Below are positions 4,403 through 31,065 of a DNA stretch of 64,000 nucleotides, in pieces. Below the pieces are notes generated by a model that saw only the letters and a list, made by a program, of their open reading frames with translations, had not been told where the DNA came from and made no database searches. The position numbers and the translations under genes are program-made. The number at the start of each line of letters is the position of its first letter. Position 1 is the stretch's first letter. Location of the stretch: assembly GCF_054482595.1 (NCBI RefSeq), contig NZ_CM137008.1, one strand, 5' to 3'.

Positions 4403-4488
4403 TGTAGGCAGGATAAGGCGTTTACGCCGCATCCGGCATTTGAGCAGGATGCCTGATGCGACGCTGATAGCGTCTTATCAGGCCTACA
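4403..4488. repeat. REP/BIME element pair
   Basis: Convergent GCCGGATGCGGCGTAAACGCCTTATCC / GCCTGATAAGACG...CATCAGGC palindromic units between cpxA and yiiM. Confidence 0.8.
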
Positions 4489-4497
4489 CTCCGAGGG

Positions 4498-5172
4498 TTA
4501 TTTTCCCCACAACCGGCGGGAAAAATCTTCGATCTTGCCGCTCAGTCGGCGCTTTTGCATCGTCCGCGTCCAGCTTTTCGATAACCCGGCGGCGGAGAGT
4601 AAACGGTGATACTGATCGTCATCAAACGGCATATGCCATGCGATGGCGGCAGCCTCCTGCACGGTCACATCGCTGACACGGGAAACCAACTCCAGCGGTG
4701 CGTCCGCAGACACTTTCCCTGGCGCTATCACGCTATACAACCATCCCACTTTACCCGTGTTTTGCATCAACTGCGCTATATCGCTGATATCAAAATGGTA
4801 ATTGAGTTTATAGCAAGGCGAGCGCGGCTGGCTGACCTGAATTAATGCCTCTCCCCAGCGGAAAATATCGCCCATATAAACATTACTTTCCGTCAGACCG
4901 TCGGTTGAGAGATTTTCACCAAACGCAGGCGCAACAAACAACTCCGCCTGTTCCGGAAATTCCCGCGCCCAGTAGAGATAGTGCTCACGAGGATAATGAC
5001 ACAGCGCTCTGTCTGGCCCGCCGTGAACCTTTTTCTCCGCCTGCTCGTCACCTTCCAGCCCCAGCTCCGTCAGCATCAACTCACCATCAACCTGGATTTT
5101 GGCAATTGCGCTGGGTTTGCCTTCGGGATAAGCCTGAATCTTGCCTGTGTATACATCAACCGGATATCGCAT
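4498..5172 (-). CDS. yiiM: MOSC-domain protein (6-N-hydroxylaminopurine resistance)
   Basis: ORF 4498..5202; internal Met (MRYPVDVYTGKIQ...) gives the 224-aa YiiM length. Confidence 0.85.
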   Translation of the reverse strand: MRYPVDVYTGKIQAYPEGKPSAIAKIQVDGELMLTELGLEGDEQAEKKVHGGPDRALCHYPREHYLYWAREFPEQAELFVAPAFGENLSTDGLTESNVYMGDIFRWGEALIQVSQPRSPCYKLNYHFDISDIAQLMQNTGKVGWLYSVIAPGKVSADAPLELVSRVSDVTVQEAAAIAWHMPFDDDQYHRLLSAAGLSKSWTRTMQKRRLSGKIEDFSRRLWGK

Positions 5173-27996: not shown

Positions 27997-28215
27997 TTAC
28001 CATTCCTCGCGCAGCTTACGCTGATATTCGACACCATCTTCCTCACACCCTTGCCAGATGCCAGGAACACTGGTTCTTGCTGTTTGCGATTGATTTATCA
28101 GGTATTGATCTACCGCTTCCCTTAATAGGTCCGCACGAGGAAGATTACGCTGCACCTCGAGATCATCAAGTTGCTTAATCACCTCATTCGATAAATCGAG
28201 TAAAATTCTGCCCAT
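27997..28215 (-). CDS. yiiF: Small ribbon-helix-helix (CopG/Arc-like) protein
   Basis: 72 aa from [39 protein letters not shown]...; RHH signature; paralogous to yiiE. Confidence 0.8.
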
Positions 28216-28332
28216 ATCTATACCTACCAGAGAGTTCATAAATATCTCGCCAATATCATTTTTGAATCTATGGAGAGAAAAGTACCCTTGTCGAATCTTT
28301 AAAGAAAGCTCATTTACGAATCATTTTTTATT

Positions 28333-28352: not shown

Positions 28353-28458
28353 TATGATGTAACAGTTGCAGTTATTATAAGTTCAAGTAAAACAACCTTG
28401 TATTAATACCAGAATAAGGGCATCTGGTTTTTTATATTCAAGAATAAAAAAATTTTTG

Positions 28459-28677
28459 TCATTCCTTATGATCCTTACACTGATCATAAACACCTACTGT
28501 CTCACCCCTTTGCCTGCCTCTCTTTGCTTTACGCACCGGAAATTGCTGCCGCTCCAGATATTGCTCAACCGCTTCGCGTAAAATTGCAGATCGTGAAACC
28601 TTACGCCAGCCCCGAAGCTTGTTCAGCCGTTTAATTGCCTCTTCTGATAAATGAAGAAAAACCGTATTCATCGCCAT
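28459..28677 (-). CDS. yiiE: Small ribbon-helix-helix (CopG-like) protein
   Basis: 72 aa from MAMNTVFLHLSEEAIKRLNKLRGWRKVSRSAILREAVEQYL...; GGTGG RBS; shares L.LS.E.IK.L...R..LREAV.QYL with yiiF. Confidence 0.8.
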   Translation of the reverse strand: MAMNTVFLHLSEEAIKRLNKLRGWRKVSRSAILREAVEQYLERQQFPVRKAKRGRQRGETVGVYDQCKDHKE

Positions 28678-28772
28678 TACCACCACCTTACATATATTAC
28701 TCATTAATGTATGTGCGAAAATTACGCCGGAAAATCATTTAAAAAAAGCGGATTTTTGCATGTTGTTTTGTT

Positions 28773-28792
28773 TTTGCGAGGTGTTTTCCAGA
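28773..28792 (-). promoter_or_regulatory. Copy 2 of conserved 20-bp motif, about 100-115 bp upstream of yiiE
   Basis: tttgcgaggtgttttccaga followed by ...GTGTTGCAGTTG as in copy 1. Confidence 0.5.
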
Positions 28793-29084
28793 AATAATAA
28801 GAGTGTTGCAGTTGTTTCATTTATTACTCAAAAATGGTTTAGTTATCGCCCAGGATGAGTTATGGATGCTATGAATATATTATATTCAGAGATATTTATT
28901 TGCATAATCTGAATGGTGTAGCCGAAAAACGTCAGCATCCTAACAGCACCAGGATTTAAGGTGAAATTAATCATCCATCACAGACCGGTCAGTACTGCCA
29001 CCAACCGGTCTTTACTTGTTCATCGTTATAATTTTGTTGGTAACAGTTCGGGAAACAAGGAATTCCTTCCGGAACCCCCCGGTA

Positions 29085-29177
29085 TCATCCGATAGCATTG
29101 ACGTCAATCATCAGCGCGACGATGAGTTTTTTTAATCGCATCATAGGGTGGCGACGTTCAGCACGATTACGGGTCAT
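29085..29177 (-). CDS. Candidate 30-codon small ORF downstream of the antitoxin gene
   Basis: AGGAG 7 nt upstream of ATG; product MTRNRAERRHPMMRLKKLIVALMIDVNAIG (basic N-terminus, hydrophobic C-terminus); below the size cutoff of the ORF track; no homolog recognised. Confidence 0.3.
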   Translation of the reverse strand: MTRNRAERRHPMMRLKKLIVALMIDVNAIG

Positions 29178-29262
29178 AGCAAAACTCCTGGGCAGGCGAC
29201 CACTATGCCGCTTTCACAGGAGTTCTGAATGCTAGTGCTTTCTGTATGGCATAACCATGCCT

Positions 29263-29553
29263 CTAACGGTTAAGTGCTTGCAGCACATGTTGCGGATCAT
29301 TGGCAATCGCTCGCAGCAAAGCCTTTGCAGGCCCGGTCGGTGAACGTCGCCCCTGCTCCCAGTTACGCAACGTGTCTACGCTTACAGAAATAAGATCGGC
29401 AAATTTAGATTGTGACAACCCTGAAGCGCGGCGTATTTCTTTGATTTTCATAGCATCAACTTCAAAAGTCCGCGAAGGCTGTCGCGTTCCTTCAATAATT
29501 TCATTCATCTGGGCCATGCTGTGAGTCAACCGCTCAAAAAGTGCCTTATCCAT
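29263..29553 (-). CDS. HTH-XRE family DNA-binding protein, putative HigA-like antitoxin
   Basis: 96 aa; C-terminal HTH (IKEIRRASGLSQSKFADLISVSVDTLRNWEQGRR); GAGGTGG RBS inside the upstream toxin gene; ATG directly abuts the toxin stop (TGG-TAA-ATG). Confidence 0.7.
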   Translation of the reverse strand: MDKALFERLTHSMAQMNEIIEGTRQPSRTFEVDAMKIKEIRRASGLSQSKFADLISVSVDTLRNWEQGRRSPTGPAKALLRAIANDPQHVLQALNR

Positions 29554-29865
29554 TTACCACCTCGTATTTAACAACCGGAGCATTGCTTTTTCCTGGGGAG
29601 ACAGATCATCTTTAATACCCTTACGATAAATAAGCAGTAATCTGATCTCATAATGTTTAACCTGATGAAAGTAAATAACCCTGACACCAGCACGTTTCCC
29701 CTTTCCTCCTGAAACCCATCGAACCTTTCTTAACCCACCAGTTTCAGGTATTACCTCACCATAGTCAGGATTCAAGGCCAGGAAAAACTGAAAACGACTG
29801 AATTCATCGTCGGTCAGCAGTTTTTGAACATCTTCAGTAAAAATTTCCGTTTCGATGAAGAGCAT
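29554..29865 (-). CDS. RelE/ParE-superfamily toxin, HigB-like (toxin encoded upstream of its antitoxin)
   Basis: 103 aa; pattern ...GGLRKVRW...GKGKRAGVRVIYF.....IRLLLIYRKGIKDDLSPQE... typical of HigB-type addiction-module killer proteins; gene order toxin then HTH antitoxin with zero spacing. Confidence 0.65.
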   Translation of the reverse strand: MLFIETEIFTEDVQKLLTDDEFSRFQFFLALNPDYGEVIPETGGLRKVRWVSGGKGKRAGVRVIYFHQVKHYEIRLLLIYRKGIKDDLSPQEKAMLRLLNTRW

Positions 29866-29902
29866 AATTATACGCCATTGGCTTAGAGTAACAATCCTTT
29901 TT

Positions 29903-29919
29903 GTACGTCATTGACGTAC
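29903..29919. promoter_or_regulatory. Perfect 17-bp palindrome GTACGTCA-t-TGACGTAC upstream of the toxin gene: candidate operator
   Basis: Located about 40-55 bp upstream of the toxin ATG, adjacent to TTGTTA-N16-TATAAT-like hexamers on the minus strand. Confidence 0.4.
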
Positions 29920-29986
29920 CCTTGAAACCACTAGCTTACTGATAGTGCTCCAGCAAAACCACGTCTCTGCCGGGTTTGTCTTTAGA

Positions 29987-30006
29987 TTTGCGAGGCGCTT
30001 TCCAGA
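29987..30006 (-). promoter_or_regulatory. Copy 3 of conserved 20-bp motif, about 120-140 bp upstream of the toxin-antitoxin operon
   Basis: tttgcgaggcgctttccaga; 18-19/20 identity to copies 1 and 2. Confidence 0.5.
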
Positions 30007-30093
30007 TTTTTCACGCCCGTGAATTTCCCTGTATCCATCCAGCAAAAACGGGTGTATAAGACTGTGCATTCATACAGCAAAATAAGTTCTACT

Positions 30094-31002
30094 ATGGCAC
30101 TGGAAAAAGGAATTGCAGAGTTAGTCGAAAAGTTTATCGCTGCGGGTCGCCCCTCATCGCGTCAACAAAGTATTGCGCAGCGCAGGGAGGGCTATATCGC
30201 CAGCGCTGTCCTTGCGGGTGAGACAGAAACGCGGGTAGATATTCAGACTATCGAACTTGAAGGGATGACCTTACGAATAGTGTCGCCGCTGAATGCCCCG
30301 ACATTACTCCCGACGATAATTTATTACTACGGTGGCTGTTTTGTTAGCGGCGGGTTCGCAACTCACGACAACCAGCTGCGCCAGTTAGCCTATTACGGGC
30401 AATGTCGGGTTATTGCCGTCCAGTATCGGCTGGCACCGGAACATACTTTCCCCGCCGCCCATGATGATGCGCAACGAGGTGCAGAAATAGTCTGGCAACA
30501 CGCCGAACGACTCGGCGTTGATAAACAACGTATAACTCTTGCCGGTGACAGTGCGGGCGGACATCTGGCGCTGGTAACTGCTTTGCGATTAAAGCGTGCT
30601 GGCGAGTGGCAACCGGCACAACTCATCTTAATTTATCCTATGCTTGATGCGACTGCGCATTTCGAAAGCTACATACGCAATGGTCACGATTACATCATCA
30701 CACGCGACACTTTACTGAGCGGCTTTGAGATGTATCTGCCAGGCATTGAACGCAGGCATCCTGAAGCCAGCCCTCTTTGGCGCGATGATTTCAATGGCTT
30801 GCCACCTGTACATATCATTACCGCTGAATACGACCCACTTTGCGATGAAGGTGAAGCGTTGTATCACCGCATGACAGGGCAAGGAGTGCAATGCACCTGC
30901 CAACGCTACCTTGGCGTTATCCACGGATTTTTTCAGTTAGGTGGTATCAGCGAGGCCGCGCGATCGGCACTACGGGATGTTGCCTGGAGAGCGGGAAGGT
31001 AA
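30094..31002 (+). CDS. Alpha/beta-hydrolase esterase/lipase, hormone-sensitive-lipase family
   Basis: Oxyanion-hole motif YYYGGCFVSGG, nucleophile elbow GDSAGG, downstream Asp/His (VIHGFF); start uncertain (ATG 30094 chosen; ORF opens at GTG 30019). Confidence 0.75.
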   Translation: MALEKGIAELVEKFIAAGRPSSRQQSIAQRREGYIASAVLAGETETRVDIQTIELEGMTLRIVSPLNAPTLLPTIIYYYGGCFVSGGFATHDNQLRQLAYYGQCRVIAVQYRLAPEHTFPAAHDDAQRGAEIVWQHAERLGVDKQRITLAGDSAGGHLALVTALRLKRAGEWQPAQLILIYPMLDATAHFESYIRNGHDYIITRDTLLSGFEMYLPGIERRHPEASPLWRDDFNGLPPVHIITAEYDPLCDEGEALYHRMTGQGVQCTCQRYLGVIHGFFQLGGISEAARSALRDVAWRAGR

Positions 31003-31019
31003 CTTCGGACCTGGGCCCT

Positions 31020-31048
31020 GAAAAGGTTTTCAGATTGAAAACCTTTTC
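31020..31048. terminator. Hairpin between convergent esterase and yiiD genes
   Basis: Perfect 13-bp stem GAAAAGGTTTTCA-gat-TGAAAACCTTTTC; symmetric, could terminate both converging transcripts. Confidence 0.6.
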
Positions 31049-31065
31049 AGTCAAGTAAAACGCCC

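Follow-up and report, generated by a model that had tools for sequence, protein, structure and literature searches.

Gene organization at the locus

Do two short open reading frames (ORFs) that abut on the E. coli chromosome encode a toxin-antitoxin (TA) module and, if so, to which of the known families does it belong? The pair lies at 29263-29865 of the window, the stretch of 64,000 nucleotides of contig NZ_CM137008.1 (assembly GCF_054482595.1) that was analysed here. An earlier note on this DNA had read it as a toxin-first module of the HigBA type, encoding proteins of 103 and 96 aa. The coordinates and the sizes given there stood, whereas the orientation had to be corrected, since both genes are on the minus strand (Table 1). 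The local gene order is fdoI, fdhE, yiiF, yiiE, the TA pair, a gene for an alpha/beta hydrolase (esterase), fabY (yiiD), dtd and yihY.

Read on the minus strand, the junction of the two genes is ACG AGG TGG TAA ATG GAT, in which the toxin stop codon (29554-29556) and the antitoxin start codon (29551-29553) abut with 0 nt between them, just as the zero-spacing TGG-TAA-ATG of the earlier note described it. The ribosome-binding site (RBS) of the antitoxin had been placed inside the 3' end of the toxin gene, and the sequence GAGGTG at 29563..29558, a six-base match to the Shine-Dalgarno core, is indeed found within the last toxin codons. The junction GAGAGGTGG-TA(A/G)-ATG is common to E. coli, Enterobacter and Salmonella, and the Shine-Dalgarno sequence of the antitoxin is likewise kept among them. 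The two ORFs are not a chance pair: both proteins have many relatives in the databases (1711 for the toxin, with 3888 cluster representatives at E<=0.001, and 3016 for the antitoxin), and their order is conserved.

Table 1. Features of the toxin-antitoxin locus, in positions of the window.
Feature	Position	Strand	Description
Toxin gene	29554..29865	(-)	103 aa, ATG start; RefSeq WP_000897305.1; HigB-2/SehC-type RelE-fold protein
Antitoxin gene	29263..29553	(-)	96 aa, ATG start; WP_000356397.1; HigA-2/SehD/NadS-type
Antitoxin Shine-Dalgarno sequence	29558..29563	(-)	GAGGTG; within toxin codons 101-103; 4 nt 5' of antitoxin ATG
O2, proximal operator-like palindrome	29871..29885	.	TAAGCCAATGGCGTA (minus-strand reading); 5 nt upstream of toxin ATG; 1 mismatch to TACGC-N5-GCGTA
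O1, distal operator-like palindrome	29904..29918	.	TACGTCAATGACGTA; two mismatches to consensus, symmetric
Candidate promoter, by homology	29885..29911	(-)	ATGACG-15-TACTCT; -35 at 29911..29906, inside O1; -10 at 29890..29885; 7/12
Best sigma-70 consensus match	29867..29894	(-)	TTGTTA-16-TATAAT; 10/12; O2 in spacer; -10 ends 1 nt before toxin ATG
Hairpin, putative operon terminator	29180..29227	(-)	inverted repeat, 36 nt past antitoxin stop

The RNA of the hairpin downstream of the antitoxin gene folds with about -27 to -31 kcal/mol (z = -2.1); the terminator scan made no call at this hairpin, and an Rfam search of 28400-30300 returned no RNA family at E<=1. An ORF of 30 aa at 29085-29177 was considered as a third gene of the module and rejected, for it is the truncated remnant of a 70-aa gene that is found in other strains.

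The toxin protein

The 103-aa protein aligns without gaps to the HigB-2 chains of the PDB across residues 2-99 (phmmer, E about 1e-19), and its identity to V. cholerae HigB-2 is ~42% over the whole length. It also matches phrog_5869 with an E-value of 6e-27. Substitution of HigB-2 residues R51, R64, Y82 or K84 by alanine cuts the activity 170- to 3000-fold (PMC5416850), and their counterparts in the ungapped alignment are R49, R62, Y80 and K82 in the E. coli toxin. Among 60 diverse relatives of the toxin, R49 and K82 never vary, and conservation of R62 and Y80 is at least 90%.

The Pfam search that the earlier note had proposed gave a divided answer. The E. coli toxin alone matches the RelE family PF06296 (formerly DUF1044) only marginally (E 0.0062, 17.2 bits, residues 43-101), whereas 56 of the 60 aligned relatives match it at E<=0.001 and all 60 at E<=0.1, and the antitoxin matches HTH_3 at 3e-9. 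The full-length homology to HigB-2 and the PF06296 matches across the family corroborate the assignment of the toxin to the RelE/ParE superfamily. An NCBIfam search with the toxin gave no match; the PADLOC defence-system models did not match the toxin either, and matched the antitoxin by generic HTH models only.

We also compared the pair with the HigBA proteins of K-12. BLASTP yielded E=10 for the toxin against HigB (ygjN) and E=1.1 for the antitoxin against HigA (ygjM), that is, no detectable similarity, and no PF09907 (HigB_toxin) match to the toxin was found in the Pfam search. The suggestion that the toxin differs from K-12 HigB was therefore correct, and the pair represents a different subfamily.

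The antitoxin protein

Besides HTH_3, the 96-aa protein matches the NCBIfam model NF041265 NadS with 60.7 bits (curated cut-off 60; residues 5-89 against positions 3-87 of 94), phrog_2104 (E 8e-26, residues 1-93) and, in the PDB, HigA-2 (E 2e-8, residues 31-89) and Atu1735 (1e-10). These matches agree with its previous description as an XRE-HTH partner of the toxin. The protein consists of an N-terminal segment (about residues 3-31) predicted to bind the toxin and a C-terminal XRE helix-turn-helix (about residues 35-90). At the N terminus the motif LF..L..S..QM.EI..GE..PSR.F persists in relatives with toxins of only 40-60% identity. Of the four HigA-2 residues that contact bases, two are kept, N72 and R77 aligning to N64 and R69 of the antitoxin, and the other two are changed, R68 and E71 aligning to D60 and R63. 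As for the name under which RefSeq lists the gene (nadS, NadS family protein), our literature search found no paper defining 'NadS'; one paper reports that a nadS-annotated gene of K-12 is expressed, and this gene is another paralog.

Predicted structure of the complex

Toxin and antitoxin were modelled with AlphaFold as one fused chain (toxin-linker-antitoxin) on 40 paired sequences from E. coli, Enterobacter, Salmonella and phage-borne loci. The mean pLDDT of the model is 84, and it is low only in the artificial linker. The modelled toxin has the order strand-helix-helix-three-strand-helix, and the antitoxin forms a helix at residues 3-21 (pLDDT 89-98) and a short strand at 28-31, followed by the helix-turn-helix bundle. 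Foldseek searches against the PDB placed HigB-2 chains at the top (TM 0.81-0.85, rmsd 1.9-2.7 A) and the C-terminal domain of HigA-2 next (TM 0.82), and mycobacterial and E. coli RelE scored far lower (E about 0.05 vs 1e-8 for HigB-2). The disordered N terminus of HigA-2 folds to a helix and then a strand on HigB-2 (PMC5416850), and the predicted complex agrees with this published mode of neutralisation.

The superfamily label 'RelE/ParE family' of the annotations would also be compatible with a ParE-like gyrase poison in place of an RNase, and is the only point in favour of one. We give this reading almost no credence, since the best matches in sequence and in structure are to HigB-2 and then to RelE, the top 50 structural matches of Foldseek include no ParE, and the catalytic residues of the RelE type are present.

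Operator-like palindromes upstream of the toxin

Upstream of the toxin gene we found two palindromes of 15 bp, O1 and O2, with a centre-to-centre distance of 33 bp, of which O1 is part of a perfect 8+8 inverted repeat (GTACGTCA/TGACGTAC, 29903-29919). The operator of V. cholerae HigA-2, TGTACGC-N5-GCGTACA, is known from footprinting and a crystal structure (PMC11006873). The half-sites and the spacing of O1 and O2 (GTACG-N7-CGTAC) equal those of the footprinted site with 1-2 mismatches, and from this identity we infer that both are candidate operators for the antitoxin.

A survey of the region within 130 nt upstream of the toxin, which allowed up to two mismatches, detected the motif in 52 of 65 distinct related loci, vs 2.4 expected from shuffles. 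Across the 64-kb window the relaxed motif was found 30 times vs 29 expected by chance, so that the case for O1 and O2 rests on their position and on their conservation across species. Both are nearly unchanged in Enterobacter and Salmonella while the surrounding bases are variable, and O2 shows at most one substitution across the three genera.

Family assignment and proposed mechanism

Sequence, fold, operator and gene order allow us to refine the previous reading of the locus as a HigBA-type type II module. The pair very probably belongs to the family of V. cholerae HigBA-2, and not to the HigBA family of K-12 and Proteus, and we hold this assignment and the overall scheme that comes with it with high confidence.

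According to this scheme, the toxin would enter the ribosomal A site and, by homology, most likely cleave translating mRNA with a RelE-like site formed by R49, R62, Y80 and K82. The antitoxin would be translated from its own strong RBS in the 3' end of the toxin gene, right after the toxin stop. Its segment of about residues 3-31 is predicted, from the precedent of HigA-2 and from the model, to fold to a helix and a strand on the toxin and to neutralise it. Finally, a dimer of the antitoxin may use the C-terminal XRE-HTH to bind the two palindromes, O1 and O2, that cover the promoter and start region, and the identity of the operators suggests that autorepression would result.

Our confidence in mRNA cleavage as the chemistry is somewhat below that in the family and the scheme, because the case of the neighbouring Salmonella toxin SehA indicates that assigning a mechanism from the fold can fail: this protein has a RelE/HigB-like fold and is reported to be a non-ribonuclease that acts through, or blocks, RNase III (PMC12817084). 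By the same token the toxin studied here could inhibit growth without mRNA cleavage by binding a cellular protein, as SehA does with RNase III. However, SehA comes from a different family (PF09907) and is stated to have no canonical active site (PMC12817084), whereas the toxin keeps the complete active site of HigB-2 and has no significant similarity to K-12 HigB, a member of the family of SehA. We consider this reading very unlikely and keep ribosome-dependent mRNA cleavage as the most likely activity.

Promoter and translation of the toxin

The TTGTTA-16-TATAAT sequence, the best consensus match before the toxin gene, would start transcripts inside the toxin ORF, near 29860, given that only 1 nt separates its -10 from the ATG. 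Its spacer contains O2, an arrangement also seen at the higBA-2 promoter of V. cholerae and in many relatives carried by phages, except that the site is 5 nt closer to the ATG in E. coli; this spacing to the toxin ATG was seen in no other of the 45 loci compared. It is probably a chance match made of the end of O2 and A/T-rich bases. The site at 29885..29911 would be the likelier promoter, with a start expected near 29878, though its match to the consensus is weak. The same positions hold TTGACG-16-TACTAT in Salmonella sehCD, which is closer to the consensus than the E. coli sequence, and TTGACT-16/17-TATTAT (10/12) in the closest phage-borne relatives. If the TTGTTA-16-TATAAT site were used instead, the chromosomal copy may have been rewired, its main output being a NadS-type regulator made from antitoxin-only transcripts, with the toxin coming only from the weak upstream promoter; we assign a low probability to this possibility.

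Two promoter layouts were recognized among the relatives. In the first (16 loci, phage-borne), the -10 ends 4-7 nt before the ATG and the operator lies between -35 and -10, a -10 position that predicts a leaderless toxin mRNA. In the second (14 loci), the -10 ends 29-34 nt before the ATG, and operators lie over the -35 and between the start site and the ATG; the promoter of Salmonella sehCD, 19-20 nt before the ATG, resembles this layout. A leaderless toxin mRNA was rejected for the E. coli copy, which has no -10-like hexamer 6-8 nt before the ATG.

A Shine-Dalgarno-like sequence precedes the toxin start in only 7 of the 65 related loci and is absent from the other 58, including that of E. coli, so that the output of the toxin is probably kept well below that of the antitoxin. 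If the first gene of a toxin-first operon has no RBS and the antitoxin gene right after its stop has a strong one, an excess of antitoxin could plausibly be maintained.

Distribution and conservation of the module

The 603-bp module was found in 2636 of 5426 complete E. coli genomes (about 49%), with one copy each; the identity is never below 95%, and the location is nearly always chromosomal. ATCC 11775 is among the strains that carry it. The module is missing from K-12, in which an unrelated segment of 474 bp replaces positions 29056-31065 of the window and no remnant of the module is seen. Enterobacter and Salmonella carry the module at the corresponding site, with fabY/esterase on one side and fdhE on the other, which indicates that it is an old resident there; a recent mobile insertion was rejected on the same grounds. 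In all of the 79 informative phage or prophage loci, the relative of the antitoxin lies directly 3' of the relative of the toxin on the same strand, and the toxin-first order remarked on earlier is therefore conserved in these loci as well as in Enterobacter and Salmonella.

Between E. coli and Enterobacter/Salmonella, identity reaches 91-97% for the flanking core proteins, compared with 83-85% for the antitoxin, 75% for the esterase and 69-71% for the toxin; judged by these identities between genera, the toxin is evolving faster than the antitoxin.

Several natural variants were detected. One E. coli genome has lost the antitoxin by an IS1-associated deletion and has a frameshifted toxin, a second has a frameshifted toxin with an intact antitoxin, and a third carries IS1 within the toxin. 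A Salmonella lineage and one Enterobacter genome have an intact toxin, a frameshifted antitoxin and no esterase, which they have lost. These last variants, together with a retracted report of a viable sehD deletion, suggest that native levels of the toxin do not kill the cell, or else that fragments of the antitoxin still protect. For V. cholerae HigA-2, an N-terminal peptide of 20 residues suffices to neutralise the toxin (PMC5416850).

These data bear on the possibility that the module is decaying or domesticated, with a toxin that is barely made or barely active and a conserved antitoxin that works mainly as a transcription factor and may control the divergent esterase gene. Such a reading could account for the lack of a Shine-Dalgarno sequence before the toxin ATG, the weak match (7/12) of the promoter proposed by homology, the better conservation of the antitoxin, the sporadic toxin pseudogenes beside an intact antitoxin, the viable Salmonella and Enterobacter variants with an intact toxin and a broken antitoxin, and the report, in a retracted study, that sehCD has no phenotype (PMC3868539). 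It would also fit the position of O1 and O2 in a 228-bp region shared with the divergent esterase gene, whose linkage to the TA pair is common to E. coli, Enterobacter and Salmonella. Nevertheless, the copies sampled from E. coli, Enterobacter and Salmonella have an intact toxin ORF that keeps the four catalytic residues, and the codon changes of the toxin within the E. coli sample are mostly synonymous. Moreover, the Salmonella toxin SehC was toxic on overexpression, and a peptide of it was detected, in an independent study (PMC4366850), and the sole genome that has lost the antitoxin also has a broken toxin. The missing Shine-Dalgarno sequence is family-wide (58/65 loci) and is therefore no sign of decay in E. 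coli. We regard decay or domestication as unlikely.

Significance of the assignment

The pair is already known, and RefSeq has names for both proteins. For the toxin, many E. coli records still give 'hypothetical protein', and others 'type II toxin-antitoxin system RelE/ParE family toxin'; the antitoxin is listed as 'NadS family protein'. Our literature search found no paper or experiment on the E. coli pair itself. The assignment matters little beyond correct annotation, and once the pair is linked to HigBA-2 and Salmonella sehCD, a clear and testable function can be given to both genes. Being present in about half of the complete E. coli genomes and absent from K-12, the module belongs in the inventories of E. 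coli TA systems, which serve work on persistence, phage defence and genome stability. An operator common to V. cholerae, Enterobacteriaceae and phage-borne copies, combined with a toxin gene that lacks a Shine-Dalgarno sequence throughout the family, could interest those who study toxin-first operons and the excess of antitoxin.

Comparison with known systems

The HigB/HigA pair of K-12, HigBA of Proteus Rts1 and SehAB share with the E. coli pair the toxin-first order, a toxin of the RelE superfamily, an HTH antitoxin and autoregulation, the last being a prediction for the pair studied here. Antitoxins of the K-12 HigA type have 138-148 aa and an N-terminal dimerisation domain, unlike the antitoxin of 96 aa found here, and Proteus HigB has a His-Tyr catalytic pair and no C-terminal helix (PMC5416850, PMC12817084). 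The closest active-site chemistry, according to the structural study of HigB-2, is that of RelE (PMC5416850). RelE carries out ribosome-dependent mRNA cleavage, and the same activity would be expected of the toxin by analogy; the gene order of E. coli relBE is opposite to that of the toxin-first pair. RelB is a ribbon-helix-helix protein and binds its toxin through the C terminus.

Most Salmonella enterica genomes have the order fabY, a 148-aa HTH gene, a PF09907 HigB-like gene, the esterase gene, a divergent pair encoding 103 and 96 aa, and fdhE. The PF09907 protein carries the residues studied in SehA (Y53, R54, K56, D61, H88, Y91, K93, T95, Y97 and Y98; PMC12817084), which identifies it as SehA and, consequently, the other pair as sehCD. 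This is consistent with the published separation of sehCD from sehAB by the single gene STM4032 (PMC3868539, retracted; PMC4366850). We also considered the E. coli pair as a counterpart of Salmonella SehAB and rejected it, because SehB has 142 aa, SehA is a PF09907 relative of K-12 HigB, and in Salmonella sehAB is found beyond the esterase gene, on its fabY side.

SehC/SehD (STM4032.2N-STM4033; SL3979-SL3980) have the position and orientation of the E. coli pair, between esterase and fdhE, and share with it the zero-spacing junction and both operators. SehC is 71% and SehD 85% identical to the E. coli proteins, and the former value agrees with the 72% identity reported between STM4032.2N and an E. 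coli 'HigB' (PMC3868539, retracted). Judged by locus, identities and published gene identifiers, the pair is the E. coli ortholog of sehCD. The two species differ in that Salmonella has sehAB between fabY and esterase, where E. coli lacks it, and in that E. coli, unlike Salmonella, has yiiE and yiiF between the antitoxin gene and fdhE. The paper that named sehCD claimed repression by SehD, binding of SehD to the promoter and two promoter palindromes, as well as weak toxicity and deletions of sehC, sehD or both without a growth or virulence phenotype (PMC3868539); since it was retracted, we take its claims on sehCD as leads only. In the independent study, the toxicity of overexpressed SehC in S. 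Typhimurium was neutralised by its partner, and the SehC peptide was detected by proteomics (PMC4366850).

HigB-2/HigA-2 of V. cholerae (VCA0468/VCA0469; PDB 5JAA, 5JA8, 8A0X) have been characterised biochemically, and the E. coli pair is described here from its sequence and a predicted structure. The higBA-2 genes are part of the superintegron, while the E. coli pair occupies a conserved site of the core genome, and only one operator, placed between -35 and -10, is present in V. cholerae, in contrast to the two copies, 33 bp apart, of E. coli. The two systems have in common the toxin-first operon, the four active-site residues and the predicted fold of the toxin, and an antitoxin that combines an N-terminal helix-plus-strand segment with a C-terminal XRE-HTH.

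The locus in K-12

Comparison with E. coli K-12 MG1655 revealed that window positions 29056-31065, which hold the toxin-antitoxin pair together with the esterase gene, are exactly replaced by an unrelated AT-rich segment of 474 bp (positions 4440-4913 of the K-12 locus, L002). No remnant of the pair or of the esterase gene was detectable in this K-12 segment, so the two sequences differ by a replacement and not just by a deletion. Expression of RS26030 of K-12 BW25113, a gene annotated as nadS by PGAP, has been reported for the first time (PMC12350097). Since K-12 lacks the module and has a gene annotated with the family name of its antitoxin, a NadS-family paralog distinct from the antitoxin of the module must be present there.

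Sequence divergence and toxin translation

The toxin evolves faster than the antitoxin: identity between genera is 69-71% for the toxin versus 83-85% for the antitoxin (window 29263-29865 against the Enterobacter locus L005 and the Salmonella locus L008), and the core genes flanking the module reach 91-97% against the same loci. The conservation of the antitoxin goes together with a near-invariant operator sequence.

A Shine-Dalgarno sequence is absent before the toxin gene in 58 of the 65 related loci. In 16 related loci the toxin ATG lies 4-7 nt after the -10 element of a good sigma-70 promoter, which suggests leaderless toxin mRNAs there. The 1-nt spacing between TATAAT and ATG seen in E. 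coli was found in none of the other related loci compared.

Features of the window around the toxin-antitoxin module
Feature	Window position	Strand	Description
yiiF	27997-28239	-	small CopG/ribbon-helix-helix protein near the module
yiiE	28459-28704	-	small CopG/ribbon-helix-helix protein near the module
30-aa ORF	29085-29177	-	AGGAG ribosome-binding site; downstream of the antitoxin, past the hairpin at 29180-29227
Candidate promoter	29867-29894	-	contains TATAAT, with just 1 nt between it and the E. coli toxin ATG

Decay of the module

Within E. coli the decay of the module is sporadic. Strain EC5931 (L091) lost the antitoxin and yiiE to IS1, and the toxin left behind is frameshifted; 2016C04-116 (L093) has an intact antitoxin and a frameshifted toxin, and in CH4797 (match H16) the toxin gene is interrupted by IS1. 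Two lineages outside E. coli, Salmonella L003/L004 (4313-4600) and Enterobacter L007 (4313-4622), have a frameshifted antitoxin beside a toxin that is intact and retains every catalytic residue. The antitoxin is split near codon 10 in the former and after about codon 30 in the latter, and the esterase gene has likewise been lost from both lineages. The toxin allele of Salmonella L003/L004 is recorded on 641 contigs.

Neighbouring genes and related loci

The 30-aa ORF downstream of the antitoxin is a truncated copy, reduced to its 5' end, of a Cys/Arg-rich 70-aa gene (WP_000197769.1) that matches phrog_4499 (E 8e-14). E. coli strain 405 has this gene intact, followed by a 92-aa gene, and about 395 bp of that stretch are missing from the window. 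Small CopG/ribbon-helix-helix proteins often serve as antitoxins; the gene content of the window places no toxin gene beside either yiiF or yiiE. Both genes are absent from the locus in Enterobacter and Salmonella, where fdhE directly follows the antitoxin.

The esterase gene of Salmonella enterica is flanked by two unrelated toxin-first modules (L008-L010, 1702-4291; compare window 29263-31002). The one facing fabY, sehAB, belongs to the K-12-HigBA type (PF09907), and the one facing fdhE, sehCD, to the HigBA-2 type. Of the two, only the HigBA-2-type module is present in E. coli and Enterobacter, which lack a sehAB counterpart beside the esterase gene.
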